From: a virus
Lineage: Duplodnaviria; Caudoviricetes
Strand: one strand, 5' to 3'
DNA length: 64,000 nucleotides
IMG/VR virus record: IMGVR_UViG_3300036453_000006
Location: 1,022-65,021 of that record
Shown: positions 3,949-47,916 of the stretch, piece by piece
How the letters are laid out: each line of letters opens with the position of its first letter
Numbering within the stretch: position 1 is the stretch's first letter
The notes under the pieces: model-generated
Told to the model about the DNA's origin: nothing
Seen by the model: only the letters and a program-made list of their open reading frames with translations
The model's database searches: none
Position numbers and translations under genes: made by a program

Positions 3949-4189
3949 TTTGGTGTTCCTTTATGAGGGGGACAGGGGTCATTATATACCCTGTAATTTT
4001 TGCGAGCTTATACGATTTTGTGAAGGGTCATCATGCGTCCGAAGAAACCGGCACGATTGATTTTGCGAGCGGCACCTTTGGCTGTCCAGAAACGGCGACC
4101 GCGGAAGCATACAAATCCAGTAATATCGTTTTTGACAAAGTATTTACGACGCATGATAGGCTCCTAGATTCTGAACAGCTTATGGGTGG

Positions 4190-5814: not shown

Positions 5815-6004
5815 TATTATAAAGCGTGTAAATTTCGCGAGGGTCAGTTCTTTTTATAGCGCTTTCGATATTTAAAACCTTTAAGCAACATCCCATACAA
5901 AGCCGACCGTCTATAGAGGTGCACTTCGAGACAAGTGGTACATGCAAATAGCATAGTTTTTTTTGTAGCTGACGGACCCATAATTCTCAAACGATGCTTA
6001 TGCA

Positions 6005-10230: not shown

Positions 10231-10422
10231 TTACTTGTCAATGTCTCTAAGGCCCGCCACGATCTCCGTAAACTCAAGATCTGTAACATATTTAGTAACG
10301 CTGTTGGCCAAATCTTCAACCGCGGATATGAGTAGCTGGTTATCCTTGTGCACCTTAATCGTATAGAGCGTCAGGGTCGTAATTGAGACAATCCCAAGGG
10401 ATATGGCAAGCTTCTTAAACAT
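10231..10422 (-). CDS. small single-pass membrane protein
   Basis: 63 aa; N-terminal TM segment; GAAAGG RBS. Confidence 0.6.
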   Translation of the reverse strand: MFKKLAISLGIVSITTLTLYTIKVHKDNQLLISAVEDLANSVTKYVTDLEFTEIVAGLRDIDK

Positions 10423-10480
10423 GACGACCTTTCGATTTGAGAAAAGGAAAGACCGGGTTAGAGTCTTCCTTATTGGTGAT

Positions 10481-10660
10481 TTAGGTAAAATGGGCGATGA
10501 TTAATCTCGCTAGTAGGCCGAAGCTTGCTGCGATAATTGATCCGATAGCTATGATCTTAACGACGACTTTCATTAGGGAGGTCAAGTCGTCTTGGGAGTT
10601 AGCTGATGAATCAACCTCTGCTTTTAGCGGTGGGGCTAGAGCGCGAGTGGGGGTATTCAT
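10481..10660 (-). CDS. cassette gene: 59-aa membrane protein
   Basis: Manual translation MNTPTRALAPP...KVVVKIIAIGSIIAASFGLLARLIIAHFT; AAAGGAG RBS. Confidence 0.7.
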   Translation of the reverse strand: MNTPTRALAPPLKAEVDSSANSQDDLTSLMKVVVKIIAIGSIIAASFGLLARLIIAHFT

Positions 10661-10705
10661 AAGTCTCCTTTACGGGGGTCATTATATACCCTGTATAATC
10701 CGCGA

Positions 10706-10924
10706 CTAGATCTGATTGTAGATAATAAACATAACAGATCGTTCTACAAACAAAGTAATACTCCTTGATGGAAGCATGGATACGGGATATGCTTGGATCT
10801 TTACTTCGTTCGTGTCTTTAGACTTTTTGACTCGGGCAATGCGGTACAGTTGACCCGCAACCAGAATATAATCGTCTTGTAGAAGCTTTTTGGCTTTTAC
10901 AGCTTGCTCTTTCATTTTATCCAT
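10706..10924 (-). CDS. small beta-barrel-like protein
   Basis: 72 aa; A..L..DD.I..AG..Y pattern resembles 53949..54155. Confidence 0.55.
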   Translation of the reverse strand: MDKMKEQAVKAKKLLQDDYILVAGQLYRIARVKKSKDTNEVKIQAYPVSMLPSRSITLFVERSVMFIIYNQI

Positions 10925-11157
10925 CAGTTGTTACAACCTCAATCCAGGTTTCATGGGTCTCGTCCCTACAGCCGTTGGCATGAGCAATAGCACTCAATGC
11001 GTCATCGAGAAGCAGCAGTTTATGCGCAGCTTCAAAATCTTGACATTCGGTCTTACAAGCAATCCAAACTTGAAACTGCATAATATACCCCTTAGAAAGG
11101 CTATCAAAAAATGAAAAACCTTAAGCCCGTGTTAGGGGGCTGTTTGGCTTTTGAACT

Positions 11158-11421
11158 TTACTTCTCGTCGGGGGTTTCTTCGACGGGTGCTTCGGTCTCG
11201 GGGGTGAGAATCGTGAGTTTCTTGGCACGGCGGCGAGCACGCAGGGCGCTGATTCCACTCCAGATGCTTGCACCGACAACGTAGAGGAGGACGGGCGCGA
11301 GAGCGGCTCCGATTCCAATACCTGCCTGTACGAGTTGATCTTTGGTGGAGGGCGTCTGGTACTCGACCAGGATGTGGTCAGGGAACTCGACGGGGGTCTC
11401 GTTTGAGATGTTGGTGTCCAT
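11158..11421 (-). CDS. cassette gene: 87-aa membrane protein
   Basis: TM segment followed by basic RARRRAKK; own promoter and hairpin. Confidence 0.75.
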   Translation of the reverse strand: MDTNISNETPVEFPDHILVEYQTPSTKDQLVQAGIGIGAALAPVLLYVVGASIWSGISALRARRRAKKLTILTPETEAPVEETPDEK

Positions 11422-11654
11422 TTCTGGATTCCTTTCGTGAGGGGTTAGGGTTCACTATATACCTTGTAAATCTCGCGACTACTTGTTCGGATTGAACGAG
11501 CTGCGGGTCAAGGTCTCTTCCGACTCGTCAGGGTGATCCACCATATACGAGCTAACTAATCTAGCGATCACTTTATTCAAGTTATCGTACAATTCAATAC
11601 TCTTCGACGAGGACGTGAACTCGATCTTGATCATTTTATTTTCCTTAGAAAAGA

Positions 11655-11837
11655 TTAAATATAATCGGTCGTGGTCTTAAGTGTTCCGCTTGCAGGACTA
11701 AAGGTTCCAGTCACAGTTACGTCTGCGGTAACTTCGTGATCGAAACGGTGATCTTTCAAAGCATCCTGAATAGCGGTCCATACGAATTCAAACATTTCGT
11801 TATTCGTAGAATTTGAGACGAGTTCGATCTTAAACAT
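11655..11837 (-). CDS. hypothetical protein (60 aa)
   Basis: AAGGAG RBS; lies downstream of hairpin 11869-11885 and has no own class I promoter. Confidence 0.6.
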   Translation of the reverse strand: MFKIELVSNSTNNEMFEFVWTAIQDALKDHRFDHEVTADVTVTGTFSPASGTLKTTTDYI

Positions 11838-11896
11838 AATTGCTCCTTAGAAAAAAACAAAAACCTTAAGCCCGTGTAAGGGGCTGTTGGTTGGGT

Positions 11897-12016
11897 TTAG
11901 AGGGATTCGATGCTTTTGTACTGCTCTTTGTTGTACTGCACAGCGAAGACACTGACGATCACGATGGTGATGACAGATGCTGCGGTGGCAATGATAACTT
12001 TGAGGTTCTTGGACAT
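11897..12016 (-). CDS. cassette gene: 39-aa membrane peptide
   Basis: MSKNLKVIIATAASVITIVIVSVFAVQYNKEQYKSIESL; start reset to ATG 12016 after AAAGGA. Confidence 0.7.
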   Translation of the reverse strand: MSKNLKVIIATAASVITIVIVSVFAVQYNKEQYKSIESL

Positions 12017-12105
12017 ATTAATGTTCCTTTCTAAGGGGTCATTATATGCGTTGTAATTTTCGCGAAAGCGTAAGCCCGTGTTAGGGGCTGTGGCTTTGAC
12101 TGGCG

Positions 12106-12360
12106 TTAAACTAGAGGTCGTACTGATGTGTAGGCTGTGTGGCTTAAAGCACCATGCGGTAGTCTTACGGTAATTCGATAAGTACCATTCAGCGTTACTG
12201 GGCCATGTCGTTTTTCGTGTCTTGCGGCTGTACCTACGAGTAGGATACGGTGCCACAAATTATAACGTTTCGATGATTGCCAGGTAGCTGTAGTGAATGA
12301 TTTATCTTCGAATAGTTCGTAGTATAAAACATAGGCTTCAAGTATTTTTTGCTTGAACAT
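12106..12360 (-). CDS. cassette gene, paralog A (84 aa)
   Basis: Own promoter, RBS and hairpin; clearly homologous to 12448..12690. Confidence 0.8.
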   Translation of the reverse strand: MFKQKILEAYVLYYELFEDKSFTTATWQSSKRYNLWHRILLVGTAARHEKRHGPVTLNGTYRITVRLPHGALSHTAYTSVRPLV

Positions 12361-12447
12361 ATAGTTTCCTTTGTTTGTGAGGGGTCATTATATGCCATGT
12401 AGAAACTGCGAAAACCTAAAGCCCGGGTTAGGGGCTATGGCTTTGAT

Positions 12448-12690
12448 TTACAAACCTTTCTCAATGCGAACGTTGGTGTACTTAAAGAATTGCATTTTTA
12501 CGCGGACGGTATAGATAGAGTTCTTCTCAATGGGGCCTCGGCGCTTTTCATAGATCGAAGCTGATCCTCCGAGTATTAGTCGGTGGAGGAGTTTTTGATT
12601 TTTTGTTGAGCGCCATACGGCGATTGGGAACGACTCGTATTCAAATACGTCATGGTATAATACAAGAGCTTTTAGGTTCAGAGTTTTCAT
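12448..12690 (-). CDS. cassette gene, paralog B (80 aa)
   Basis: Shares VLY..FE..SF..A.W.S.K...L.HR..L.G.A...EKR.GP...N..Y with 12106..12360. Confidence 0.8.
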   Translation of the reverse strand: MKTLNLKALVLYHDVFEYESFPIAVWRSTKNQKLLHRLILGGSASIYEKRRGPIEKNSIYTVRVKMQFFKYTNVRIEKGL

Positions 12691-12776
12691 AATGATCCTT
12701 TGTTTGTGAGGGGTCATTATAAGCCCTGTAGAAACTGCGAAAACCTAAAGCCCGTGTTAGGGGCTGTTGGCTTGAC

Positions 12777-13043
12777 TTACTTATCTTTTGATAGGGAGTG
12801 TAGGTAAAATTCCATATCTCGGACGGACATGCTTACTGCTTGATCGATGGTAGTTCGCTGAAGCTGCTCGATGTTCAGCATTGCGGTCTCGAATTCCTTA
12901 CGCATAGCGGTGAGAGCTACCTGCTGCTTTTTGAGCTTGAGGTATTTCTTTGCAACGGTTCGGAGGAGTGCAACGCTGATCGAGAAGCCAACAAAGGCGC
13001 CAATGATCAGAACAATAAGAACGATGGTCAGAATGGTATTCAT
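12777..13043 (-). CDS. cassette gene: membrane protein with coiled coil (88 aa)
   Basis: N-terminal TM segment, AAAGGA RBS. Confidence 0.75.
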   Translation of the reverse strand: MNTILTIVLIVLIIGAFVGFSISVALLRTVAKKYLKLKKQQVALTAMRKEFETAMLNIEQLQRTTIDQAVSMSVRDMEFYLHSLSKDK

Positions 13044-13103
13044 GATAATCCTTTTTGTAGGTGAGGGGTCATTATATACCGTGTAGGAATCGCGATTGAA
13101 TAC

Positions 13104-13295
13104 CTACGGTTTGGGTTTTTTATTCTCTAGACGCTCGGCACGCATCTCGGCACCAATTCTTTTCCAGACTTTCCTGGAGACCACGATTGCATTCCAAATA
13201 CTTTTTCGGATCATGAATATGATGATCGCAAAGAATAATAGAATGACACTTCCGACGATTATAAGTGTTTGACCGATGAGTTGTAAAACGTCCAT
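13104..13295 (-). CDS. small membrane protein (63 aa)
   Basis: TM segment plus basic tail; no own class I promoter. Confidence 0.6.
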   Translation of the reverse strand: MDVLQLIGQTLIIVGSVILLFFAIIIFMIRKSIWNAIVVSRKVWKRIGAEMRAERLENKKPKP

Positions 13296-13365
13296 AATAT
13301 AAAACTCTCTTTAGTGGTTTACGAAATTGAAAAACCTAAAGCCCGTGTTAGGGGCTGTTGGCTTC

Positions 13366-13512
13366 TTAGGCCTGCTTGATGGCAGCCAGTTCGGCTTCAA
13401 GAACTTCGGTCTTCTTGTTCTGCTTTTGGACGATGAGCTGCTTCTGGGTGGAGGCGGCCTTTTCGACCTTGGCGAGAACAATCTGAGCGCGGAGCTTCTG
13501 ATTCTTGAACAT
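13366..13512 (-). CDS. cassette gene: 48-aa basic coiled-coil peptide
   Basis: Manual translation MFKNQKLRAQIVLAKVEKAASTQKQLIVQKQNKKTEVLEAELAAIKQA; AAAGGA RBS. Confidence 0.75.
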   Translation of the reverse strand: MFKNQKLRAQIVLAKVEKAASTQKQLIVQKQNKKTEVLEAELAAIKQA

Positions 13513-13601
13513 GGTGTTCCTTTCAATTAGGTGTTTAGGGGTCATTATATACCATGTAATTTTCGCGAAAACCTAAGCCCATGTTAGGGGCTGTTGGGTT
13601 C

Positions 13602-13757
13602 TTAATCTTTTTGAATTTGAACTTTTGGATTATAATGGGGGATACGGGTTTGAAGAATATGTTCTACGGCATTCTTAGCACTTTCCGGTGTGTGGAATAT
13701 GCCTGGGGTGTAGTCCAGTTCAACTTCAACAATCAGTATTACCGTTTTGTGGTCCAT
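13602..13757 (-). CDS. cassette gene (51 aa)
   Basis: Manual translation MDHKTVILIVEVELDYTPG...KVQIQKD; AAAGGA RBS. Confidence 0.7.
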   Translation of the reverse strand: MDHKTVILIVEVELDYTPGIFHTPESAKNAVEHILQTRIPHYNPKVQIQKD

Positions 13758-13837
13758 GATGTTCCTTTCAAGGGGTCATTATATACCATGTAGAAAACGC
13801 GAAAAAGAAAGCCTGGTTAGGGCTTCCTTCTTTGAAC

Positions 13838-14017
13838 TTACTTGTCGAGAAGCTTTTTCTTGAGCTGCTTGGCGCGTCCGAGCATCGTTCGATCGACCTG
13901 TCGTGCAATCTTGCGCTTGGTGGATACGAATACGAGTTCGTATACGAGGCCAATGAGCGAGAGTGCACTGACAGCTGCGACGACGATGGTCCAGGTGGCG
14001 CCTAGTTTCTTAAACAT
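13838..14017 (-). CDS. cassette gene: 59-aa membrane protein
   Basis: MFKKLGATWTIVVAAVSALSLIGLVYELVFV plus basic tail; AAAGGAG RBS. Confidence 0.75.
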   Translation of the reverse strand: MFKKLGATWTIVVAAVSALSLIGLVYELVFVSTKRKIARQVDRTMLGRAKQLKKKLLDK

Positions 14018-14110
14018 AGTTTCTCCTTTGTAGTGGGTTCTATTATAGGCCTTGTAAAAACTGCGAAAAAAAGAAAGCCGGGTTAGGGCTCCCTTTTGAT
14101 CCGTTAAGGA

Positions 14111-14203
14111 TCACATTGGTCGATTAAATCTCGATCGGGCGAGGAGGAGTACGACTGCGAGGAACAGTACGAGTCCTCCAAAGAACGATATGAATGACAT
14201 CAT
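14111..14203 (-). CDS. cassette gene: 30-aa membrane peptide
   Basis: MMSFISFFGGLVLFLAVVLLLARSRFNRPM; AAAGGA RBS. Confidence 0.65.
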   Translation of the reverse strand: MMSFISFFGGLVLFLAVVLLLARSRFNRPM

Positions 14204-14287
14204 AGCGATTCCTTTCTGGGGGTCATTATATGCCATGTAGAACTCGCGAAACGAAAAACGTAAGCCCGTGTTAGGGGCTGTGGTTTT

Positions 14288-14560
14288 TTACTTGATACGG
14301 GTGAGGATGTCGTTGGCTTCGAGGTACTCATCAGTACATGGGATCGAACCACCATGATTCGCAATGTAGGCGTTCAACTTTGTTGCTGCGCGATCATATG
14401 CACGCATGTCGATTTCGTCGGCGTTGATTTGGGCATGGCCAGTTTCAACGTCGAGGTTATAGACACGGAGATTGTTGATTGCATAAGCTTCAATAGTTGA
14501 AAGCCTAACAGTGTGTTTGGGGTCCGATCCATACTGATAGGTATTCTTACGATTAAACAT
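14288..14560 (-). CDS. cassette gene (90 aa)
   Basis: Start reset to MFNRKN at 14560 after AAAGGA. Confidence 0.75.
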   Translation of the reverse strand: MFNRKNTYQYGSDPKHTVRLSTIEAYAINNLRVYNLDVETGHAQINADEIDMRAYDRAATKLNAYIANHGGSIPCTDEYLEANDILTRIK

Positions 14561-14638
14561 AATGTTCCTTTCAAGAGGGGTCATTATAAGCACTGTAGAA
14601 CTCGCGAAAAGAAAAAGGCCTTGTTAGGGCCTCATTCT

Positions 14639-14827
14639 TTAGTCTTCAGGTAGGTAGTATTCGTCATACAGATCTTTTTCGACGAGGAATCCGTTCAGTG
14701 ACTTGATGCCTTGTCTCTGGAGCACTACGCTGGCAATACTGGTTAGAGTAACGACAATTGTAGTGATCAGGATTTGGCGTTCGTGGTCAACGATGAACTT
14801 CTTCGTTCGAGCGGTAATTTTCTTCAT
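14639..14827 (-). CDS. cassette gene: 62-aa membrane protein
   Basis: MKKITART... with central TM segment. Confidence 0.7.
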   Translation of the reverse strand: MKKITARTKKFIVDHERQILITTIVVTLTSIASVVLQRQGIKSLNGFLVEKDLYDEYYLPED

Positions 14828-14922
14828 TAGATAATGCCTTTCGTGAGGGGTCATTATAAGGCATGTAGAAACCGCGAAAAACTATAACCTTTGTGATATT
14901 ATCGTGAGGTTACAGATTTGGG

Positions 14923-15159
14923 TTAGATCCGATCGGCGATGACGATATCTGTGGATATGGCTCTTACGTATTTGTAGTGCTTTTCAACGACACTAAGCGG
15001 GACGAAGGACAGCAGGGAGACTGCATCTTCATCGAGATCGACTATGGTGAATCTGTTATTTAACAAAAACTTCCGTAGGGATTCGACGAAGCGGCATCCT
15101 TGCTCTTCTTCAGCCACAATGAGTTGTGTTTCGGTGAGTTGGCTAATAGCGTATGGCAT
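14923..15159 (-). CDS. cassette gene (78 aa)
   Basis: Own promoter 15178-15209 and AAAGGA RBS. Confidence 0.7.
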   Translation of the reverse strand: MPYAISQLTETQLIVAEEEQGCRFVESLRKFLLNNRFTIVDLDEDAVSLLSFVPLSVVEKHYKYVRAISTDIVIADRI

Positions 15160-15245
15160 TAGATTTCCTTTCGTGTAGGGGTCTATTATATGCCATGTAG
15201 AAACCGCGAAAACATAAACCCGTGTTAGGGGTTGTTTGTTTTTGA

Positions 15246-15461
15246 TTACTTCTTTCGGTTCCAGAACTTACGGTTAAGTAGTTCAGTACGCTGGTGTCGA
15301 GCATGTGATGCAGCTCCGGCAACGAAGTTGTAGTTCTTCTGTAAGAGTTCGAAGGTCTCGAATGAGACTTCGTCCTTTAAACAAGACTGCAACAGTTCGC
15401 GGGCGAGGTTGATGGCATTGTGCTCTTGAACGGTGTACGGAGCAATTTTGTGCTTGAACAT
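15246..15461 (-). CDS. cassette gene (71 aa)
   Basis: Own promoter 15476-15506, RBS, hairpin 15217-15233. Confidence 0.75.
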   Translation of the reverse strand: MFKHKIAPYTVQEHNAINLARELLQSCLKDEVSFETFELLQKNYNFVAGAASHARHQRTELLNRKFWNRKK

Positions 15462-15545
15462 GGGGTCCTTTCAGAGGGGTCATTATATACCATGTAAAAG
15501 CTGCGAAAACATAAACCCGTGTTAGGGGTTGTTTGTTTTTATAGG

Positions 15546-15725
15546 TTAGTCGATAGTGGTATTCTGTTTAAACCAGGCCTCAAGTTCTTCACGGATAGGT
15601 CGCTCTACTACTTCAAGTTGTTCGAGGGCGTCTGGAGCAGATGCTTTTTGGTCATCAGCCCAGAAGTCATTTATTATCTTGTCATAGTCAGCGCGAATTT
15701 CGCTCATGGTACGTGGGGTGGTCAT
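15546..15725 (-). CDS. cassette gene: 59-aa acidic protein
   Basis: Manual translation MTTPRTMSEIRADYDKIINDFWADD...WFKQNTTID; AAAGGA RBS. Confidence 0.7.
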   Translation of the reverse strand: MTTPRTMSEIRADYDKIINDFWADDQKASAPDALEQLEVVERPIREELEAWFKQNTTID

Positions 15726-15887
15726 TATAGATTCCTTTCTAAGGGGTCATTATATACCCTGTAAAACTAGCGACCTTTTGACCTAAAACTCCACCCGGGA
15801 AAATTTTAAGAATCGTTGTAGGACTTGCGAAAACATAGAAGCCGTGCTACTTTTTGGGTATTAGTAACACGGCTTCGCGGTTTTGGC

Positions 15888-16199
15888 CTATTTGATGATA
15901 GGGCCTGATTTGAGATTAGGTTTGATCACAAATCCGATTGCCTTGGAGGTTATGACGTTGAACTTCTCGAATCCCAGGATCATTCCCAGTCCGAAGACAT
16001 GCGCGCCGGCGTTAAGCAGTGCGTCACCCGTGAACTTACTTTTCTTCCGAGTGGAAGACCAGAGTTTGTAGAGGATATCGTACTGCTTGACGGCGGCTTC
16101 GTATTCTTTGGACGTGGAGCTGAGGCCTGAGAGTTCGTCGAGAACTCGGTCAAGTTCCTCTTTGAGTGTATCGGTTATGAGCTGCTTTTTCTTAAACAA
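15888..16199 (-). CDS. coiled-coil protein with C-terminal membrane segment, downstream of holin
   Basis: 103 aa, TTG start after AAAGGA; own class I promoter 16218-16248. Confidence 0.7.
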   Translation of the reverse strand: MFKKKQLITDTLKEELDRVLDELSGLSSTSKEYEAAVKQYDILYKLWSSTRKKSKFTGDALLNAGAHVFGLGMILGFEKFNVITSKAIGFVIKPNLKSGPIIK

Positions 16200-16249
16200 G
16201 CGCGTTTCCTTTCAAGAGGGGTCATTATAAGCGTTGTTTTTGTTGCGAA

Positions 16250-16537
16250 CTAATTCAAATGCTGGTTATTTACCTCTACCGCAGCGGCACTTTTATTGTA
16301 CGATACGTTACTAAGGCCCAGAATAGCCGCAAGGAACACGGTTACGAGCGAGATCGTACCTACAACCTGAGTGCCAAACGGGAAGATCCACAGTACTGAC
16401 AGGCCTGCATACAACGTGGCTGCAGCCGGCATGACGTATTGCACAAGGAACTTCAGCCGGTCATAGACCCCGGTCGTCAGGAACGACGTGGGGCTGTCTG
16501 CGTGGGCAGGGCCACTGTTATTCGTAGACATATTCAT
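16250..16537 (-). CDS. holin (Dp-1-type)
   Basis: YDRLKFLVQYVMPAAATLYAGLSVLW.FPFGTQVVGTI...FLAAILGLS, two TM segments, at the end of the tail module. Confidence 0.8.
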   Translation of the reverse strand: MNMSTNNSGPAHADSPTSFLTTGVYDRLKFLVQYVMPAAATLYAGLSVLWIFPFGTQVVGTISLVTVFLAAILGLSNVSYNKSAAAVEVNNQHLN

Positions 16538-26929: not shown

Positions 26930-27703
26930 TTATAGTGATTTAATGGAATATGACGTTGAGTCAATATAGTTAGCTGACGGCCAGTCAATCTGGAAGGTTG
27001 TAGCGTCTAACATCTGAATTATAGAAGATGGACCTTCCGCAGACCAGGTACCATCCCCATAGTCAGTAATCTTTAATATAGCTGTATCTTCAAATATCTT
27101 AAGTAGCTCGATTACCGTTGGAAATTTAGGCTCCGTGGTATCTGTCCCGTATAACACGTCCTCTACTAGGGCTACTGACGTAAGATAAGCCTTAGCTGTA
27201 TCGATTACAAAGTGTGATGCGGGTTTAGCATCTGGGACTGGGTTTGGCGTAGTAGATATAGACCATGTAAACTCTTCAGCGCTTGACAAGCCATCTATAC
27301 TTAAATGATCTCGACTTGTAGGTTTTGCTAATGCGTTATACACTAGGTGGATCTTATAGTTATTATCGTTTAGGTCATTACTGGATCGTGTGCAATATGC
27401 TAGATTAAAAGTTTTTGGGGTTTGAGACCGTATTTGTAAATCGGAATAACCATCATAATCCTCGAACTCGACAGGATATGTGAATGCTGAAAGTTCAGCT
27501 AAATACACACCTAATTGGAGTTGAGTGTGAGCCTTCTGGCCGTCAATATAGGTTATACTCTGACTAGATTCATCTGTAGCTTCGTTGATCGAAACTATAC
27601 CGCTCCACGAGACACCGGGACCGACTTTAGGATATAGAACCCCTCGGTCGACCCCGGATTCATAGAAGCGAGAGCCAATGTCATCCCAACTAAGTTTTGT
27701 CAT
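26930..27703 (-). CDS. major-tail-protein paralog 3
   Basis: MTKLSWD..G.RFYESGVDRGVLY...YKIHLVYNA. Confidence 0.8.
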   Translation of the reverse strand: MTKLSWDDIGSRFYESGVDRGVLYPKVGPGVSWSGIVSINEATDESSQSITYIDGQKAHTQLQLGVYLAELSAFTYPVEFEDYDGYSDLQIRSQTPKTFNLAYCTRSSNDLNDNNYKIHLVYNALAKPTSRDHLSIDGLSSAEEFTWSISTTPNPVPDAKPASHFVIDTAKAYLTSVALVEDVLYGTDTTEPKFPTVIELLKIFEDTAILKITDYGDGTWSAEGPSSIIQMLDATTFQIDWPSANYIDSTSYSIKSL

Positions 27704-27732
27704 TGTATACCCTCTCCTATATAATATCTACG

Positions 27733-30237
27733 CTATATACCCAAGGGTATTAAACCCTTATTTTGCCAAACGCCGTCAACAAAGACCCATAGCTCATTAG
27801 ACATCAAGTTAGCGTCTCCGTTTTGACTGTTTGCAGATAGTTCAGTGAAATGTTTGAACGATGAAGTTGACTGATGTGGTGTACCATCCCAGACAGTTTG
27901 GACTACCTGGTTTTTATAAATTACATCCTCAGCACCGTCAAAATATCCAGTAGTGTAGTCGCCCTCAACAAGCATAAGCTTATCCCACCAAATATCAACA
28001 CTACCTTCTACCCCTCCATGATATAGTCGTATAACATTGTATCCAGCAAGTGAATCCAGTGTGGTGAATTTGAAGCTGAGTTCGTATACGCCTGCAGCAT
28101 TGGGTGCTTGAGCACTAAACGGTCGTGCTTGGGAGATACCGTTTAGATGTACAAATATAGATCGGGCCTGACCACTGAGGGTACCCGTCTGTTCAGCAAT
28201 TAGTCGAGCGGTAGCTAAGATCGTATATGTAGTGTTTAACTTAAGGGTTGCTCGAATAGCTTCGCTACTAAATATGTCAACTCTGCTGTCACTACTAGCT
28301 TGATTGGCTTTTAGTCGAATAGACGAATATCCGTTAACGCTCCAATCTACGGATCTAAGTACCGCGGTATTCCCACTTAAAGTACTAAATGGCATTAGCG
28401 TATACTGCAGACTTATGCTAGCATTTGAAAGCCCTCCCCATAGATTAAAAACATCGTTTCCAGCTATGGTGGTGCCATCAAAATATGGACCTGGTAAAAT
28501 ACCAATTGCAAATACTTCTTTGGCAAAAGCTTCTGTGATCATGATGCCTGTTGACCCAGCTGGTAATTGCATACCAAAGGCCATACTAGTACCACCTGTA
28601 CCCACACTGGCTTTAGCTTGGAGTACAATTTCGCCACTAGACGGTATGACGCCGCTAGCTGAGCCTGCAAAAGCGCCTACTACGTTATCGGTATTTCCTA
28701 ACGAAACCGTGACGCCAACGGGACCTCGTACTCGCATCCCAATAGAATAGAATCTACCAACAACGCCTGGAAATTGAGCATAGGTGTGTGTGCCACCAGG
28801 CGCGTTTACCCACCATTTACCGTTAGCCTCAGTACGAGTCATAGCCACGCCAGACACCCAACCTGTAGTGTCTACACTAACATTAGGGTTTGTGACTATG
28901 TTTCTACGAACCTCAGCAATTGCAGCCTTAGCAGTTGATGTTGAAGTACCTATCGCGGCGGTCCAGCCATAGTCGAAACCCAAAGAGTCTAGGATGGAGC
29001 CGTCGAAATATCCACCAATCGGATCTAGGGTTTTTTCAACAACACAACCGGTGACTAATACCCCATCAGAGGTAAGCGCCATACTACCATCAATTTTAGT
29101 TACCTCTAGAGTACCATACTCTAATGCTGCTAGACCAGAGCCTGTAGTTCTAATATAGGTCCAAACCCCACTAAATAATACAGTTTCGGCAAGATGTCCG
29201 TAGGTTGAAACCTTAAATCCGTCTTGTTCGGCCAGCACCCAAACACCTAAATGTCTTTGCGGTCCAGTGTTAGCCAAGGTGTCAATGTTATAAAAGCTAG
29301 CAATAGATGATTTACTTTGACCGTCTTGTAGGCTACTTCGCAAAGCACTAGTAATACCTAAAGGATGTGTTGGTATTCCACTAGTTAAAAATGTATCTTT
29401 GTGTATAGCGCCGTTATTTCGAAACCACCCATTACCGGCTAAAGCTCTTGGATTTGTGCTTAGATTAGTTCTAACAATGGTGGTACCTGGGTTGACTGAC
29501 TCAAAACTTGGATTTACAGCCTCATTAGTAATGGTGGTAAAGGCGCTTGCAAGCGACCCTATAAAATTGAGCGGCTCAACTAGGGCTAGTGACTTCCAGG
29601 TAGTAAACTGGGATATAATCTGCGCGGGCGTTGGGAGACTTGGAAGTAGTCCATTAGCGCCGTACAAATATCCTTCGAGAACCGCAAGGAGATCCGGATC
29701 TACTTTTCGGGAGTCTATAACCAGATGTGCTGTGGGCTTATAACCAAATGCAGCAGCTGGTGGGCGAGTTGAAATATCCCAACTAAGCTCTAGTGGATCT
29801 AGTGACTGAGTCATAGTGCTATTATCGCGGCCGGCAGGTGCTGCCAATGCGTTGTAGACTAGGTGGATTTTATACCCAAGACCAAGTCCTGTGAGGTCGT
29901 CGCCGATAAGCGTACGGTATGACAGACCAAAAGATTTTCGAGGCTGCTGAGTGACAAAAAGTCCTACCGCTAGCTGGACAGTACCATCACAGACCGAAAA
30001 CTCGGAAGGGCTAGAGAAAGCCTCAATTGATGCCTGAAATTCTTCAGCTGATGCAATATTGACATACTTAAACCCGTCGATGTAGTAGGGCTTAGGTTCT
30101 CCACCAGTGGGTGCCTCTTTAACAGCCTTAAGACCGTTCCATGAGACACCGGCTAGACCGGGAACATAAAGGACACCGCGATCTACGCCGGCCTCGAAGA
30201 AACGTTCTCCAGCGGCACCCCAAGTAAGCTTAGTCAT
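27733..30237 (-). CDS. major-tail-protein paralog 2 with long carbohydrate-binding-like extension
   Basis: MTKLTWGAAGERFFEAGVDRGVLY...YKIHLVYNA then about 600 aa with three NP...YFDG...W modules. Confidence 0.8.
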   Translation of the reverse strand: MTKLTWGAAGERFFEAGVDRGVLYVPGLAGVSWNGLKAVKEAPTGGEPKPYYIDGFKYVNIASAEEFQASIEAFSSPSEFSVCDGTVQLAVGLFVTQQPRKSFGLSYRTLIGDDLTGLGLGYKIHLVYNALAAPAGRDNSTMTQSLDPLELSWDISTRPPAAAFGYKPTAHLVIDSRKVDPDLLAVLEGYLYGANGLLPSLPTPAQIISQFTTWKSLALVEPLNFIGSLASAFTTITNEAVNPSFESVNPGTTIVRTNLSTNPRALAGNGWFRNNGAIHKDTFLTSGIPTHPLGITSALRSSLQDGQSKSSIASFYNIDTLANTGPQRHLGVWVLAEQDGFKVSTYGHLAETVLFSGVWTYIRTTGSGLAALEYGTLEVTKIDGSMALTSDGVLVTGCVVEKTLDPIGGYFDGSILDSLGFDYGWTAAIGTSTSTAKAAIAEVRRNIVTNPNVSVDTTGWVSGVAMTRTEANGKWWVNAPGGTHTYAQFPGVVGRFYSIGMRVRGPVGVTVSLGNTDNVVGAFAGSASGVIPSSGEIVLQAKASVGTGGTSMAFGMQLPAGSTGIMITEAFAKEVFAIGILPGPYFDGTTIAGNDVFNLWGGLSNASISLQYTLMPFSTLSGNTAVLRSVDWSVNGYSSIRLKANQASSDSRVDIFSSEAIRATLKLNTTYTILATARLIAEQTGTLSGQARSIFVHLNGISQARPFSAQAPNAAGVYELSFKFTTLDSLAGYNVIRLYHGGVEGSVDIWWDKLMLVEGDYTTGYFDGAEDVIYKNQVVQTVWDGTPHQSTSSFKHFTELSANSQNGDANLMSNELWVFVDGVWQNKGLIPLGI

Positions 30238-30248
30238 TAGATTCCCTC

Positions 30249-30791
30249 CTAGCCTGTAGTATTGTTAGACGCCATACGTTCGGCATTCAGTCTGCGCTGT
30301 TGCGCAAGTTGTTCACCCTTGCCCATCTTCTTGGCAGGGGAATTCTTTTGATTCGTGACCTTGATAAGTGTGAATAGGCGATTAAGATTCCATACTTCAC
30401 ACTCAAAGGGGATATTTAGGGCAGTCATCCAGTAATAGATGATTTCTGACGTAATAATTTCGCGACTCTTAGACGATCCCGGAACTTCCGTAAACCAAGT
30501 CGCAGACATTTTAGCGCCAATATATGTGTTAATCTGGGTAATTACCTCCGGGGGCATTCTCCAGAAAACTTCAGGGGAGACGTTCGGTGTCAAAGTCATA
30601 GCTCTGAGGTAGCCTGACGTCTCCGCTGGTGTTTTGTCTTCTTTGCTGAGAAACGGCTTTTCAAATTCCGCCTCCCATTTTGATAGGGAGACCAGAGAGT
30701 GCTCCATGTCGATCTTTACTTCAGGTCTCGTTAGGAATTCACTCGATGTCTCATTAAAGAATTCGCTCGATGGGATGATAATCTTAAGCAT
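30249..30791 (-). CDS. tail assembly chaperone-like protein
   Basis: Start reset to MLKIIIP (30791); HSLVSLSKWE..F.KPFL, TSE.IYYWM...IPFE...W.LNRL. Confidence 0.7.
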   Translation of the reverse strand: MLKIIIPSSEFFNETSSEFLTRPEVKIDMEHSLVSLSKWEAEFEKPFLSKEDKTPAETSGYLRAMTLTPNVSPEVFWRMPPEVITQINTYIGAKMSATWFTEVPGSSKSREIITSEIIYYWMTALNIPFECEVWNLNRLFTLIKVTNQKNSPAKKMGKGEQLAQQRRLNAERMASNNTTG

Positions 30792-30819
30792 TCTCTGGTC
30801 TCCTTTCTCAATTGTTGGA

Positions 30820-31707
30820 TTAGACCGTTCGGGTGAAGACCCAGTCGTCGTCCGAGTTCGCAGTGAACATGTATCCAGCAGCCGGAGTTGCCGTAATGAC
30901 CAAGGACGAACCGATTGCCCCAGGAATCTGCACAGTAGCAGAGCTGTTGACAATGGCAAGGGTGTCTGCACGACGGTAGACCACACCGGTAACTGCCGGG
31001 ATGGTGATAACACCAGCTGCGGTAGCCGTCGGGGCGACAGTCGTTACGGCGGTGAGGGTCGTTGCAAACATCGCAATGACTTCATCGGGCAACGGAAGAC
31101 GCGGTGACGCGGCGGCCGTACCATAGAGGGCATTCGTGAGAGCCGTAAGGCCCGACGCGGATACCTTGGTCGAGTCAATCGTCAGGATAGCAGTAGGCTT
31201 GAAGCCAGCTACCGGTACGGGAATGGTCGTAACCTCCCACGAGAACGTGATTGCCTCGGGGCTGTCGTTAACCGTCGCGTAAGCCTTTTCCGTCGGAGCA
31301 GCAGTTGCACCGTAGACCAGGTGGATCTTGTATCCGAAGTCCGTAGCAACCAAGTCGTTGCCGAGAAGTGTCTGGTACGAGAATCCGAAGGACTTGCGAG
31401 CCTGCTGACCAATGACCACGCCAGCCGACGGCGAAACTGAACCATCGAACTGCGCGAATTCGGGAGGATACGTGTAGGCCTCGATCGTAGCACCGAAGTC
31501 CTCAGCAGAGATGAGGTTCAGGTACTTGATGTTGTCTGCGTACTGTGCAGTTGCCTCGGCGCCGGAAGGAGCTTCGGTAACAGCCGTGAGACCGTTCCAA
31601 GCTACACCAGTGTCGTAGACGCCCAACGTTGGGATGTAGAGGACACCCTTGCTAACGCCAGTTTCATAGTGGCGCTGCCCGGAGCCATCCCATGTGAGTA
31701 CAGTCAT
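30820..31707 (-). CDS. major tail protein
   Basis: LTWDGSGQRHYETGVSKGVLY...YADNIKYLNL.SAE.F; high-GC3 codons typical of a highly expressed gene. Confidence 0.88.
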   Translation of the reverse strand: MTVLTWDGSGQRHYETGVSKGVLYIPTLGVYDTGVAWNGLTAVTEAPSGAEATAQYADNIKYLNLISAEDFGATIEAYTYPPEFAQFDGSVSPSAGVVIGQQARKSFGFSYQTLLGNDLVATDFGYKIHLVYGATAAPTEKAYATVNDSPEAITFSWEVTTIPVPVAGFKPTAILTIDSTKVSASGLTALTNALYGTAAASPRLPLPDEVIAMFATTLTAVTTVAPTATAAGVITIPAVTGVVYRRADTLAIVNSSATVQIPGAIGSSLVITATPAAGYMFTANSDDDWVFTRTV

Positions 31708-38558: not shown

Positions 38559-38972
38559 TCAACCCCAGAGCTTAGTGTCTCCAGCTCTACGAGCGACAAA
38601 CGGTTGTCGGATCATATTTCGATCACCATAGTGAATGGCTTGATGTGTGCGATGTGTAACCGCCACAAGAAATTCTGGGTCGAGAATCACAGCATTAGCA
38701 TCGACAATGTCGCTCAACTTCATAGGGTTCATATGATGAATCAAGATCTTATCATGGATCTCGTATCCATCAATGCCTAAGTCGCAACCTTCATCTCGAG
38801 CGATAACGCGATCTCGCATTTGCTTCCATTGAACTGATCGATAGAACTCTTGGTTCACATAACGGTCATATCCAAAGGTTGACTCTCCAACTCGACCTCG
38901 AAGTGATAGATAATCAAATCGCTCTTCGAACGTGTGTAGTCTACGCATTTCGGTATACGATCTAATCGTCAT
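38559..38972 (-). CDS. HNH endonuclease (packaging-associated)
   Basis: VIARD.GCDL...IHHMNP...H.A.HYG; start reset to 38972. Confidence 0.75.
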   Translation of the reverse strand: MTIRSYTEMRRLHTFEERFDYLSLRGRVGESTFGYDRYVNQEFYRSVQWKQMRDRVIARDEGCDLGIDGYEIHDKILIHHMNPMKLSDIVDANAVILDPEFLVAVTHRTHQAIHYGDRNMIRQPFVARRAGDTKLWG

Positions 38973-39303
38973 AGTCAGCCTCAACTTCTTGTCCGGAGTA
39001 CATTCGCATAGCGTTAATGGCATTACCATAAAGCTCTTGAATATCCTTACCCGCAGCAAGGTTCTCGATTCGAGCTTTGAGCAGTTCGTTTTCCTGTTCG
39101 ATCTTCTCACGTTCGAGCTTTTCACGACCACTTCCGATTTTTAGAAAGTGAGTAATGACTTGGGCTGAAGCGTTACCTTCTCGAATTTGCCGTTCTGCGA
39201 GATCCATAGCGTCAGCAACTAATTGTCGCTCTCGGGCTTCGGGGGTTGTCGCTGGAGGGCGCTTACTTAAGCTAGACTCTTGTGTCTGGCGGCGTACTGC
39301 CAT
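38962..39303 (-). CDS. probable terminase small subunit
   Basis: 113 aa, PPA.TPEARE.QL...A.DLAE.Q...G.AS.QVI.HFLK; upstream of HNH and TerL. Confidence 0.55.
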   Translation of the reverse strand: MAVRRQTQESSLSKRPPATTPEARERQLVADAMDLAERQIREGNASAQVITHFLKIGSGREKLEREKIEQENELLKARIENLAAGKDIQELYGNAINAMRMYSGQEVEADYDD

Positions 39304-43355: not shown

Positions 43356-46136
43356 CTATCTACTGATTGCGTCATTGAGTGTACTGGTTGGTATGCCTAG
43401 GGCAGTAGCTACTTCAGCCTGTGTGCGGCCTGCATTAAGCATGGCCTTGGCACGGGCTACTTTAGCATCGGGCATTACTGGTCTGTCACGTGGTGTAGCA
43501 AGCTCCCGTACACGGTCTTGATCAGCGTTCTTTAGTATGTTGTTGAGGCGGTTGTTAGTAATGGCGCCTGCCTGGATGGCAGACCACTCATCATCAGTGA
43601 TGAACACTGCTTGCTTCTTAGCCCCTGTTCTAGCACGGGAGTTGGCTAGAGCTTGAGTTTTAACCTTCTTTAACTCGTCCTTGTCCATCTCAGGGTTGGC
43701 CTGACGCTTGGCTGTGACAGAGGCATTGCCTATTAATTGGGCCTGGCGTTCAAGTGGGGCGTTTCTCAGGGCCACGTTCAACTTAGCAGTGAGGGAGGAC
43801 ACTTCAGACTTGTATGTGACGGCAGCACCCTTATTGTATTTAATAGGGGGGGTCGAAATCATAGACTTCCTAGCAGTGTTAGCTAGGGCCTTCATCTGGT
43901 TGGAGTGTGTAGCATACACAGACTCCATTGGTGTGCCACCCTTAGATACTAGGCTAAAGGCGTCATCTGTAATCTCGCCTTTCTTAACACTAGTGGTTCT
44001 AATGTTAACCTTCTCTGTGACAAGACCGGTCTTTTTACTTACCTTAGTGGTCACATAGGTTGCACCCGTTTCAGTAAAGACCTTCTTACCAGTACGGGGG
44101 TCAATTTTAAATCCACTTTTACGTTCAGCAATACGGGCTTCAGATGACACTTGCGAAATCAAGGTTTTAGCGCCCTTTGTAGGACCGCCCTGATACTTGG
44201 TTTTGAGTGCGGCGATTCCATTGTCTTGAGCAGAACGCTTATAATCGAGATTGTGCTTTTCAGCATCAATAACAACCATTGAGTGCATAACCGCTCTTGC
44301 AATTTCGGAATCAGGGGCGCTCATAATGGTCATATCCGTAATGAGGTTTGAAATCTTCCCCATTTCGGTTTGTTTAGAAACCATTTTTGGCATTCCCGGA
44401 TAGCCCTTATATTTAGACTGGGGATCGAAATCCTTCAGATCTTCAAGAGGGGGCTTATTTCGAACTCGACTATGACCAGAAGCCACATTGGGAATGACCA
44501 ATACCGTGTCACCGTCAAAGTCCGCACCAGAAAGACGAGCTGCAACCGTAGCATTAATTCCAACAGCATCGACCGCATTTTGAAGAAGCCGTTTAGCGTC
44601 TTTATTTCGGTTATTAACTGTCAGTTCTGGGATCTCAAAAATTCCACCATGAGGGTGTCGAATCAGAACAACTCTTTCCCCGTTGTTATATTGGGGGGCA
44701 TAAATCTCGTTGTCTTTCATCGATGAAATCGGCAGAATTACGTGGTTTCGAGTCCGAGGAAGACCTGCAGCTTTTAGATTTACAGCTGAGGCATCCGCAC
44801 CATCAGAGAATTGCTCTAGGAGCTTTCGCTTGACGGCTGGATTGTTGAGCGCCATGATTTCTTCATACTCGGCCAATTTAGAGGCATACGCAAGACCCAA
44901 CTGTTGTTTAGCAAGAATTGGACTCTGCTTAGACAACATCTGAGACGAAAGCGTTCTAGACCAACCATACCAGGCACCCTCTTCACCAGGCGTTTTGTTT
45001 CCGTCTGGATCAGTAGTTCCGACAATGTTTAGTGGAGAAAGTTTCTTCTTACCTGTTGTCGGGTCGATGTAGGTTTTCTGCCGGATGATAGATCCGAATG
45101 GGAGATCAGGATCCACAGCTTTGGTTTCTTGACCGTTTTCTTTTACACGCTTCAGAGGTTTAAGGGCGTCTAGCTTATTGCCCGTGGCGCTCTTATTCGT
45201 GTTGAAGCGCATGTCAACACCGTCAGGAAGATCATCCGCATACATGGCCATACCCTTAAGATAATGGGTATTATTGACCTGGATTCGAACTTGAGCATAA
45301 CGCGAGTCACCCAATGAGATATCGGCAACACCGCGTCGAAGTTCGATTACTCCGTCTTTTTGATCTCCGCCCTCTTCTTTATAGCGAACGGACAGACGTG
45401 AGTCTTTTACCGAGACTGGGGCTTTGATCGCACTAAACGATCGACCATTGTCCTCACTATAATGAGCTACCGTTCCGATTAGGCCTCCGCTTTGAGCAGC
45501 GATGACTTCTTTGTAGTCGGTATCGGGTGCGGACAGAACTTTAATCTTTGTGAACTTACCGGTACCAAGCTGCTGGGTTTTTACCGAGTTGACCTGATAG
45601 CCTTCCTCTTTGAGAATTTCGACTGCGGTATTCAACCGAGTTTGACTCACACCGAGGTAGTTTTCAGTACCCACTCCGATATCAAGGAATCTCTTACCGG
45701 CAACCTCAGTCCGAAGAACGTTGGATGTCGTGAGTAGGATGTCTTCTTTTTCTTGAGTTGCGGGAGCAAGAAGAGATCGAACGGTAGATTCGTTTTTACC
45801 CATCTCCAAACCAATTGCGACGTTGGACATACCCGTCAGTTTTAGCTTGACCGCGGTTGCAGAATCTTCACGACGAACAGTATCGCCAGCAATAGACATC
45901 TTTGCCCGGAATTGAGTACTCTTGAGACCCATACCTTCAGCAATTTGAGGATCGGTCAATCCATCCTTGCGAAGCTTATTGACATGGTCTGCAAACATAC
46001 GGTTGCGCTGTGAGGGATCGCCACCACTGCCCCAAGGATAACGCCCAGACTTCTGGAGTGTACCATAGTGCTGAATGGTACTGTCATCATCGAGGTATTG
46101 GATGTCTCGAGTTACGTCTACTACAGTGTCAAACAT
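43356..46136 (-). CDS. single-subunit two-barrel RNA polymerase-like protein (QDE-1/YonO type) with HTH domains and HYG leader
   Basis: QVRI...LKGM, RHPH, RLSGADFDGD, MGKISNLITD, HSMVVIDAEKH in the order expected for eukaryotic-RdRP-like polymerases; terminal HTH. Confidence 0.8.
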   Translation of the reverse strand: MFDTVVDVTRDIQYLDDDSTIQHYGTLQKSGRYPWGSGGDPSQRNRMFADHVNKLRKDGLTDPQIAEGMGLKSTQFRAKMSIAGDTVRREDSATAVKLKLTGMSNVAIGLEMGKNESTVRSLLAPATQEKEDILLTTSNVLRTEVAGKRFLDIGVGTENYLGVSQTRLNTAVEILKEEGYQVNSVKTQQLGTGKFTKIKVLSAPDTDYKEVIAAQSGGLIGTVAHYSEDNGRSFSAIKAPVSVKDSRLSVRYKEEGGDQKDGVIELRRGVADISLGDSRYAQVRIQVNNTHYLKGMAMYADDLPDGVDMRFNTNKSATGNKLDALKPLKRVKENGQETKAVDPDLPFGSIIRQKTYIDPTTGKKKLSPLNIVGTTDPDGNKTPGEEGAWYGWSRTLSSQMLSKQSPILAKQQLGLAYASKLAEYEEIMALNNPAVKRKLLEQFSDGADASAVNLKAAGLPRTRNHVILPISSMKDNEIYAPQYNNGERVVLIRHPHGGIFEIPELTVNNRNKDAKRLLQNAVDAVGINATVAARLSGADFDGDTVLVIPNVASGHSRVRNKPPLEDLKDFDPQSKYKGYPGMPKMVSKQTEMGKISNLITDMTIMSAPDSEIARAVMHSMVVIDAEKHNLDYKRSAQDNGIAALKTKYQGGPTKGAKTLISQVSSEARIAERKSGFKIDPRTGKKVFTETGATYVTTKVSKKTGLVTEKVNIRTTSVKKGEITDDAFSLVSKGGTPMESVYATHSNQMKALANTARKSMISTPPIKYNKGAAVTYKSEVSSLTAKLNVALRNAPLERQAQLIGNASVTAKRQANPEMDKDELKKVKTQALANSRARTGAKKQAVFITDDEWSAIQAGAITNNRLNNILKNADQDRVRELATPRDRPVMPDAKVARAKAMLNAGRTQAEVATALGIPTSTLNDAISR

Positions 46137-46958: not shown

Positions 46959-47031
46959 AATTGCTGTCTTTTAGCATAATCACAAAAAAAAGACAGGGTG
47001 TCCCTTCTATTATAAGGCATGTATTAAATGC

Positions 47032-47713: not shown

Positions 47714-47916
47714 AATGGTCTCCTGTAGTGGTAGGGGTCATTATATGCAGTGTAAAACTCGCGTCCCTGAACCACTACAGACCAGCCATCACCCGCCAGC
47801 ACCTCCCAGCTACTCCCCGGTTACTTCCGCGGCATCCTCAGATTCCTGAGCTTCCAGACAATCTGAACACCCACAAGGTGGTGGGCCCCAATGACCCGTC
47901 TCATGACTCAATAGAT

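Follow-up and report, generated by a model that had tools for sequence, protein, structure and literature searches.

A stretch of 64,000 nucleotides (hereafter the window; positions 1,022 to 65,021 of the IMG/VR virus record IMGVR_UViG_3300036453_000006, Duplodnaviria; Caudoviricetes) was found to contain an array of 16 short units, each composed of a promoter-like box, an open reading frame (ORF) and a hairpin. The array, which like every gene of the window lies on the minus strand, extends from 16248 to 10231 and constitutes the variable accessory-gene region of the phage, directly past the tail genes and the holin gene. Its anatomy, its statistics and its conservation across a supercluster of phages are direct observations, and the pattern is real and far beyond chance. 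Concerning function, we regard it as probable that the box is a promoter for an RNA polymerase encoded by the phage itself, that the hairpins are leaky terminators, and that the units are recombined at their junctions.

A rigid tripartite box heads each unit

The box is a rigid 25-nt tripartite sequence, TCGC-N6-TACA-N5-TATAAT, followed by GACCCC or a near variant at every array box. When the window was searched with the strict pattern [TA]CGC-N6-[TA]ACA-N5-TATA[AG]T, 22 matches were obtained on the minus strand, none on the plus strand and none in 200 shuffles, and 16 of the 22 fell within 10681-16248. The hexamer at the -10 position is a perfect TATAAT in 21 of the 22 copies. The TCGC and TACA boxes, which lie 15 nt and 5 nt upstream of the hexamer, respectively, are one helical turn apart. 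The box is followed by a leader of 20-32 nt carrying GAAAGGA, and a start codon stands 20-32 nt past the -10 hexamer at each of the 16 array boxes. AAAGGA precedes the start at 15 of them, the copy at 14877 having AAAGGC instead.

We also scanned for canonical sigma-70 promoters (TTGACA-16/18-TATAAT). The scan returned 11 sites, with 13 expected, and missed all 16 boxes. No -35-like hexamer was present 16-18 nt from TATAAT, the expected -35 positions reading TTTTTC or similar. The box is therefore not a canonical bacterial (sigma-70) promoter.

Units, reading frames and hairpins

Unit 1 (15827-16248) has its promoter at 16224-16248, a 103-aa ORF with a TTG start at 15888-16199 and a long hairpin at 15838-15876. 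Its ORF matches phrog_5818 and is the sole array gene kept across the supercluster, always as the first cassette. Unit 1 is followed at 15782-15831 by a degenerate promoter-like box (15803-15831) and a palindrome-like TTTTCCCGGG..TTTT element (15782-15810), which could be an operator or a special terminator. Elements resembling it follow the first cassette in ReqiPoco6, Scap1, the AU1 phages and the IMG/VR locus L011.

The next units have the same layout. Unit 2 spans 15507-15773 (promoter 15749-15773; ORF 15546-15725, 59 aa; hairpin 15507-15538), unit 3 spans 15210-15506 (promoter 15482-15506; ORF 15246-15461, 71 aa; hairpin 15210-15241) and unit 4, which ends in a hairpin of the non-CTAAC kind at 14878-14919, spans 14878-15209 (promoter 15185-15209; ORF 14923-15159, 78 aa). 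Unit 5 (14610-14877; promoter 14853-14877; hairpin 14610-14638) encodes a 62-aa product with a hydrophobic segment (14639-14827) that matches phrog_12653. Unit 6 (14255-14607) consists of a promoter at 14583-14607, a 90-aa ORF at 14288-14560 and a hairpin at 14255-14287. Hydrophobic products of 30 and 59 aa are encoded by unit 7 (14069-14249; promoter 14225-14249; ORF 14111-14203; hairpin 14069-14097) and unit 8 (13803-14066; promoter 14042-14066; ORF 13838-14017; hairpin 13803-13831), and a 51-aa product by unit 9 (13569-13802; promoter 13778-13802; ORF 13602-13757; hairpin 13569-13601).

In unit 10 (13104-13568), the promoter (13544-13568), a 48-aa ORF (13366-13512) and the hairpin (13331-13365) are followed by a promoter-less ORF for a hydrophobic 63-aa product (13104-13295). 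Unit 11 (12741-13095; promoter 13071-13095; hairpin 12741-12773) carries a hydrophobic 88-aa ORF at 12777-13043, unit 12 (12412-12740; promoter 12716-12740; hairpin 12412-12443) an 80-aa ORF at 12448-12690, and unit 13 (12066-12411; promoter 12387-12411; hairpin 12066-12096) an 84-aa ORF at 12106-12360. Unit 14 (11479-12065; promoter 12041-12065) encodes a hydrophobic 39-aa product (11897-12016), and two promoter-less ORFs, 11655-11837 and 11479-11634, lie beyond its hairpin (11862-11892). Unit 15 (10706-11478), headed by the TATAGT promoter at 11454-11478, likewise has a first ORF of 87 aa with hydrophobic character (11158-11421), a hairpin at 11114-11152 and two promoter-less ORFs, 10917-11081, with a homologue in phage Qui, and 10706-10924. 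The last, unit 16 (10231-10705), comprises a promoter at 10681-10705, a hydrophobic 59-aa ORF at 10481-10660, a hairpin at 10447-10469 and a promoter-less ORF at 10231-10422.

The first ORFs of the units are thus 30-103 aa long. For all 23 ORFs of the region, their own frame scored best with the phage codon table, a test that is biased in that the other frames contain stops. A strongly hydrophobic 19-residue window (Kyte-Doolittle mean of at least 2.0) was present in 9 of the 23, and 18 of the 20 array ORFs scanned had no clear PHROG family (E < 1e-5). Eight of the 23 start with M-F-K or M-F-N (those starting at 16199, 15461, 14560, 14017, 13512, 12360, 11837 and 10422), and ORFs of cassettes outside the array start with MFD (53.9 kb) and MFN (47.7 kb). 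These starts reflect either junction similarity reaching into the first codons or a common preference in translation start.

Sixteen hairpins were identified downstream of ORFs in the array. Their loops are of the 7-nt type C-T-A/T-A-C-N-N in 13 cases and the 8-nt CCTAACAC in one, and the remaining two (15838-15876 and 14878-14919) are of another kind. The stems of the 13 CTAAC-type hairpins co-vary (AGCCC/GGGCT, AACCC/GGGTT, GAGGCC/GGCCTT, GGAAGCC/GGCTTTC and others), and terminator-like sites numbered 20 against an expectation of 7.8±2.8. The inner stems stop approximately 7-13 nt ahead of TCGC. When the outer stem is counted, the distance becomes 0-5 nt, a spacing observed at 11 junctions. 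With hairpin and outer stem abutting TCGC in this manner, the junction is a single compact composite element.

An earlier note on this DNA, made from the sequence alone, had described 16 consecutive promoters, each with a ribosome-binding site and one ORF of 30-103 aa behind it and a hairpin near the next TCGC box, and this observation was borne out, subject to two corrections. It had named three promoter-less ORFs (11655, 13104 and 10706), whereas we count seven, among them the six listed above. They do not simply lack a hairpin of their own, as had been claimed, but sit behind a hairpin and before the next promoter, in the layout promoter-ORF-hairpin-ORF(s)-promoter, so that they are reachable only via read-through of the hairpin. 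The one-to-one pairing of promoters and hairpins was correct as a count (16:16) but not as a physical pairing, as the two elements are separable. Hairpins can be followed by ORFs, four promoters head two or three ORFs, and four promoters (16248, 13095, 11478 and 10705) directly adjoin a stop codon, the hairpin being absent there. The hairpins would then be leaky terminators or insulators, and the seven promoter-less ORFs would be expressed by read-through.

Spread of the design among phages

The array is not unique to this phage; on sequence comparison, its design typifies a large group of phages. Intergenic DNA of 47 phage records matched the junction by itself. With one mismatch allowed, we counted nine copies of the box each in Circum, Gordon, Microbacterium phage Count and Gordonia phage Secretariat, two in Streptomyces phage Scap1, 14 in Rhodococcus phage ReqiPoco6, six in Bifidobacterium phage BitterVaud1, 24 in Arthrobacter phage Qui and seven in Zeina (in 24 kb), all in forward orientation only and with no control matches. 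In these relatives the boxes cluster directly past the tail genes, apart from a few close to the right end. Searching IMG/VR with the box yielded eight contigs, each with 3-8 copies within a few kb. The consensus of 135 promoters from 17 sources was TCGCa..aattACA.ggc.TATAAT, then GA.accc, with a Shine-Dalgarno-like sequence behind 115 of the 135 and a median distance of 25 nt to the start codon. In phages of Arthrobacter and Streptomyces, the hairpins ahead of the boxes have loops of the CTAAC type, and other loops are found in other lineages.

The cassette design was present in 10 of 11 tested relatives with a gene for a YonO/QDE-1-like RNA polymerase flanked by helix-turn-helix (HTH) domains, and the eleventh, FP_oengus, has a diverged variant. 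It spans phages of Arthrobacter, Microbacterium, Gordonia, Rhodococcus, Streptomyces, Bifidobacterium and Lactococcus. The box was absent from five polymerase-free actinophages (two of Arthrobacter, two of Streptomyces and one of Mycobacterium; 570 kb in total). Among the phages tested, the box was confined to polymerase-encoding genomes independently of host (10/11 strict plus the FP_oengus variant vs 0/5), all the positive phages belonging to a single lineage.

In the more distant phages the box is altered. Lactococcus phage 1706 (L041/L046/L047) has approximately 12 copies of YCRC-N6-TACA-N5-TATAGT, beginning right past the tail genes, and P078 and P162 (L054/L055) have TTTTA-N-TTTTACA-N5-TATAAT, in which TACA-N5-TATAAT is kept and the first box is lost. 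In FP_oengus (L043-L045), the TACA-N5-TATAAT pattern gave no match; k-mer inspection led to 11 copies of CGCG-N6-TRCA-N5-YTTTAT-GG, none of whose hexamers has both A at position 2 and T at position 6. This series possibly represents a promoter and a polymerase diverging together.

Boxes of a class that we refer to as AGAAG, after the sequence behind the box in the two window copies, provided information on the kind of signal. They stand directly 5' of tRNA genes in ReqiPoco6 (L038, approximately 2169), FP_oengus (2910) and P078 (L054, 1488), and precede three ORF-less units in AU1 phages (Gordon L030, 3004-3270). As the box lies directly 5' of a tRNA gene or an ORF-less stretch in several relatives, it is a transcription signal and not a translation signal.

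Our literature search for a promoter of this polymerase group found only a 50-bp TATAAT motif in Gordonia phage Vardy, read there as a sigma-70 -10 element (PMC9671010). This motif corresponds to the box and its leader.

A candidate polymerase for the box

The candidate RNA polymerase of the phage is a 926-aa protein encoded at 43356-46136 (minus strand) that matches phrog_4291 over its full length (1205 bits). It carries a DFDGD motif at residues 539-543, and Pfam placed an HTH_23 domain at its C-terminus and, weakly, Sigma70_r4_2 at its N-terminus. For this group of phages, a preprint reported an HHpred link to the RNA-dependent RNA polymerase (RdRP) family, together with a DxDGD loop and an HTH domain at either end (10.1101/842583). 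Its identity as a two-barrel polymerase remains that of a candidate, resting on the PHROG annotation, the DFDGD motif and the published HHpred result. Homologues occur in 250 phage records, and the gene is present in every box-bearing phage tested, including Qui, whose enzyme is the best match at 57% identity. The homologues in 1706 and ReqiPoco6 carry annotations as structural proteins, a hint that the enzyme may travel in the virion. If the polymerase were delivered with the virion, the array genes would be early genes.

On balance, we favour the box as the promoter of this HTH-flanked two-barrel enzyme, because the box occurs together with the polymerase gene, is absent without it, and diverges as the polymerase does. 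The promoter of YonO itself has been reported as not yet determined (PMC5467207).

Exchange of cassettes at the junctions in relatives

Searches of phage records with megablast and blastn revealed no close relative of this phage, the only matches being junctions of 59-110 nt, and a scan of IMG/VR and metagenome contigs with a minor tail protein gave a single match of 41-49% identity. We therefore turned to relatives sharing the design, namely five AU1 Arthrobacter phages (loci L030-L034) and the Lactococcus pair P078 and P162. The AU1 phages differ by whole cassettes, with four cassette events whose crossovers lie in the promoter core, the leader or the hairpin. A 322-bp cassette is present in Nightmare, Synepsis and ScienceWizSam and absent in Gordon. 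The one junction that Gordon has here is chimeric, joining the two Nightmare junctions on either side of this cassette. Of its promoter, the initial 15 nt agree with the left Nightmare promoter and the remainder with the right one, placing the crossover within the 25-nt core. The same cassette occupies array position 2 in three phages and position 5 in Teacup, where the translocated copy carries the upstream half of the resident promoter. A 305-bp cassette found only in Nightmare is flanked by a 71-nt repeat of hairpin plus TCGC, and a 283-bp cassette found only in Teacup has its break within the promoter. In P162, two cassettes that are extra with respect to P078 are flanked by an 89-nt promoter-leader repeat.

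In the window itself, the ORFs of units 12 and 13 are tandem paralogues (41% identity over 75 aa) with junctions 88% identical, and ORFs 11655-11837 and 11479-11634 are likewise paralogues, though weakly so. The 38 nt of a hairpin-TCGC segment are identical at 15217 and 15514, where they flank the unrelated ORFs of units 2 and 3, and cassettes outside the array occur at 4.0, 47.7 and 53.9-54.2 kb. The two paralogue pairs, the shared 38-nt junction and the outlying cassettes are traces that fit the same shuffling process. The window also encodes a single-strand annealing protein and an exonuclease, and it is plausible that homologous recombination, perhaps through these two proteins, moves the cassettes. 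The repeated junctions of 60-100 nt would serve as substrates by which whole cassettes are added, deleted, duplicated and moved, as seen in the relatives and as we infer for this array.

The earlier note had proposed a modular array with gain, loss and shuffling of genes at the junctions, and had suggested looking for such breakpoints in relatives. The array is indeed modular and junction breakpoints were found in the AU1 phages and P078/P162, which share its design and are not its own close relatives; in this phage's own array, such shuffling would follow by analogy. Its comparison to an integron failed, as will be described below, whereas its remark that no integrase was visible was correct.

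Weighing the alternatives

A number of observations count against the reading proposed here. No recombination event was seen in the array itself, for which no close relative was found, and indels in promoter-less parts of the relatives (Nightmare gp45; P162 gp29) break at plain gene boundaries with no junction repeats; not every event therefore uses the junctions. Neighbouring promoters showed no significant excess of similarity over distant ones (permutation p = 0.07). The hairpin cores are short (5 bp) and their T tracts interrupted. In the 926-aa protein, Pfam detected no RdRP domain, and a sequence search of the PDB found no relative. All polymerase-positive phages are of one lineage, so that box and polymerase could occur together on account of some other factor common to these phages. 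Bacterial -10 elements have the hexamer TATAAT as well. Finally, the roles assigned to promoter, terminator and early genes are deduced from sequence.

One alternative is that the boxes are host promoters, at which the primary-sigma holoenzyme of the host uses TATAAT as a -10-only element while TCGC and TACA bind a phage HTH regulator, possibly the 926-aa protein in the role of a factor, or tune promoter strength. The near-invariant TATAAT agrees with this, as does the fact that many actinobacterial promoters work without a -35 element. Moreover, the Vardy announcement reads its motif as a sigma-70 -10 (PMC9671010), and the promoter-early stem-loop (PeSL) promoters of T4-type phages are host-type. 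On the other hand, no -35 was found at any allowed spacing, and the rigid 25 nt and the start region are kept across phages of seven host genera and two phyla. The box is also absent from four phages of Arthrobacter and Streptomyces, two of each, that do not encode the polymerase. In FP_oengus the hexamer YTTTAT is without A at position 2, and primary sigma factors require A at -10 position 2 and T at position 6. Taking these together, we judge host promoters to be unlikely. A different proposal, that the repeats are translation or stability elements (of the kind known as start-associated sequences in Cluster K mycobacteriophages) or else miniature repeats of a selfish nature, in a single long read-through operon, would account for the joint conservation of leader, ribosome-binding site and box, for seven ORFs that have no box yet score as coding, and for the modest stability of the hairpins. 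It does not accommodate the same box directly 5' of tRNA genes and ORF-less stretches in ReqiPoco6, FP_oengus and P078/P162, and the strict orientation, the fixed 20-32 nt to the starts and the TATAAT core fit a promoter. We consider it very unlikely.

The likeness to integrons noted earlier would make the hairpins attC-like sites at which a site-specific recombinase captures and excises cassettes. Small, mostly unrelated ORFs are indeed split by hairpins, and the loop CCTAAC resembles the integron inverse core RYYYAAC at six of seven positions. However, no tyrosine recombinase was detected, PF00589 being absent from the 65-kb record, which is rated 100% complete, with the control positive in 14 of 14 genomes. 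The hairpins, at 17-39 nt, are without the paired R''/L''-L'/R' organisation of attC, and each cassette has its own promoter. In the relatives, crossovers fall within the promoter core and leader as well as the hairpins, which is typical of homologous exchange. With no recombinase, no attC and no shared Pc, the integron reading was rejected as extremely improbable.

Returning to promoters of a phage polymerase, a more specific version can be put forward tentatively, and we hold it to be somewhat doubtful as a whole. The box would be the private promoter of a virion-delivered, single-chain YonO/QDE-1-like polymerase whose two HTH domains, both resembling sigma region 4, read the TCGC and TACA boxes. 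Box and enzyme would have co-diverged across two phyla (TATAAT to TATAGT to YTTTAT), and the array would be a polymerase-specific bank of early genes, continually rebuilt at its junctions by the annealing protein and exonuclease.

Comparison with known systems

Modular shuffling is a mechanism known in kind, and the nearest concept, embodying the same idea, is that of the PeSL cassettes of T4-type phages. These are terminator-promoter composites in variable regions for which modular shuffling and mini-circles have been described (Arbiol et al. 2010, PMC2839356; Comeau et al. 2014, PMC4122927). As in PeSLs, a hairpin abuts a promoter in one orientation between small, mostly orphan genes of a variable region, and indels and swaps between close relatives (here, between relatives sharing the design) break in the elements by homologous recombination. 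The host enzyme reads PeSL promoters, which have the -35 and -10 elements of the sigma-70 type; the array box, by contrast, is without a -35 and goes with a phage polymerase gene. PeSL phages are T4-like myoviruses, whereas the array phages are siphoviruses of Gram-positive hosts. The array works alike, but two things keep it out of the PeSL family: its promoter departs from the sigma-70 type, and its phages are siphoviruses unrelated to those of T4 type.

Clusters AM/AU (Klyczek et al. 2017, PMC5513430) and CC/DJ (PMC13313380) have been described as carrying central arrays of genes for small membrane proteins past the tail genes. These arrays resemble the present one in position, in their many membrane helices and in their hallmark genes. 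As far as the literature searched shows, neither these papers nor that on Vardy describe the tripartite box, its spread across genera and phyla, the link to the polymerase, the pairing with hairpins or exchange at the junctions. Promoter sets of phage polymerases (T7 class promoters, crAss-like phi14:2 gp66, the Thermus P23-45 virion polymerase and SPbeta YonO, PMC5467207) share with the array a long, rigid, repeated promoter and a phage's own polymerase, including the two-barrel kind, and the reading of early genes by an enzyme carried in the virion is an established strategy. The present enzyme differs in having HTH domains at both ends, and its initiation at the box is a prediction.

Integrons likewise contain small unrelated gene cassettes split by structured repeats; the array differs in having no integrase, attI, attC or common Pc, and its exchange looks homologous rather than site-specific. 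In lambdoid morons and the host-takeover module of Bacillus phage SPO1, genes standing alone or in small groups have a promoter and a terminator to themselves. In contrast to the array, these use host promoters, and morons are scattered and expressed from prophages, whereas the array phage is without lysogeny genes.

The array illustrates how a large, widespread group of phages infecting Gram-positive bacteria packages its variable genes, as plug-in units whose control signals double as recombination handles, a solution that T4-type phages have reached with different signals. The point of greatest interest is the likely link of the box to the phage's own polymerase. With the conserved box, a definite sequence can be put forward as the candidate promoter of the YonO-like RNA polymerases of phages. 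The cassette genes, mostly for tiny orphan or membrane proteins, are where functions in host takeover, exclusion or anti-defence might well be sought.

Genome context and outlying boxes

The window is nearly all of a 65,021-bp record with a completeness rating of 100%. Gene order was derived from PHROG matches and is given from high to low coordinates on the minus strand. The primase/polymerase gene (59709-63584) is followed by those of the single-strand annealing protein (58659-59348; phrog_4787, E 4e-50), a helicase and the exonuclease (46136-46693; phrog_3953, E 3e-77), a possible partner of the annealing protein, and then by the polymerase candidate. The next genes encode the endolysin, terminase, portal and a protease-capsid fusion, and after these come the tail genes, with three major-tail paralogues, the gene for the tape measure and those for minor tail proteins, the series reaching down to 16565. 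The array is immediately preceded by the gene for a 95-aa holin (16250-16537; phrog_9233 and phrog_881, E approximately 1e-15), homologues of which occupy the equivalent position in Circum, Scap1 and the AU1 phages, and the first array promoter abuts the stop codon of the holin gene. ThyX and other genes follow the array.

The endolysin before the terminase, the protease-capsid fusion, the primase/polymerase and the HTH-flanked polymerase-like protein are hallmarks of the actinophage supercluster AM/AU/AW/BI/CC/DJ/EL. Published accounts give such an architecture for the AM/AU clusters of Arthrobacter phages and for related phages of Gordonia, Rhodococcus, Streptomyces and Microbacterium (PMC5513430, PMC5679793, PMC13313380). 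The phage is a lytic actinobacterial siphovirus of the supercluster that includes Arthrobacter AM/AU, Microbacterium EL, Gordonia DJ, Rhodococcus CC and Streptomyces BI, with the Lactococcus 1706-like phages and Faecalibacterium FP_oengus as more distant members. All cultured relatives have the polymerase-like gene in last place, at the right physical end, and here it is mid-record, so that the IMG/VR record is permuted with respect to the physical, likely cohesive, ends.

Six strict boxes lie outside the array. Those at 3981-4005 and, as an ACGC variant, at 47740-47764 are followed by a ribosome-binding site and an ORF, and two tandem cassettes are located at 53881-54203 (promoters 54179-54203 and 53881-53905). 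The remaining two are of the AGAAG class, with AGAAG and no ribosome-binding site downstream, one at 5816-5840 and the other at 47009-47033, upstream of the exonuclease and polymerase genes. Because the same class adjoins tRNA genes and ORF-less units in relatives, such boxes may head small RNAs or long leaders, and that at 5816-5840 may head a non-coding RNA or a long leader.

Some further features were noted. The three major tail protein paralogues (phrog_2645) occupy 26930-31707, and one of them is lengthened to 834 aa. Two HNH endonuclease genes are present, at 38559-39131 and 52847-53335; AU phages have been reported to carry such genes too. In a search of the window for known RNA families in Rfam, only one tRNA was matched, outside the array, at 56754-56828 (51 bits). 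ARAGORN also identified this tRNA, with the anticodon undetermined, in a region that the earlier note had flagged as a broader island of tRNA-like elements.

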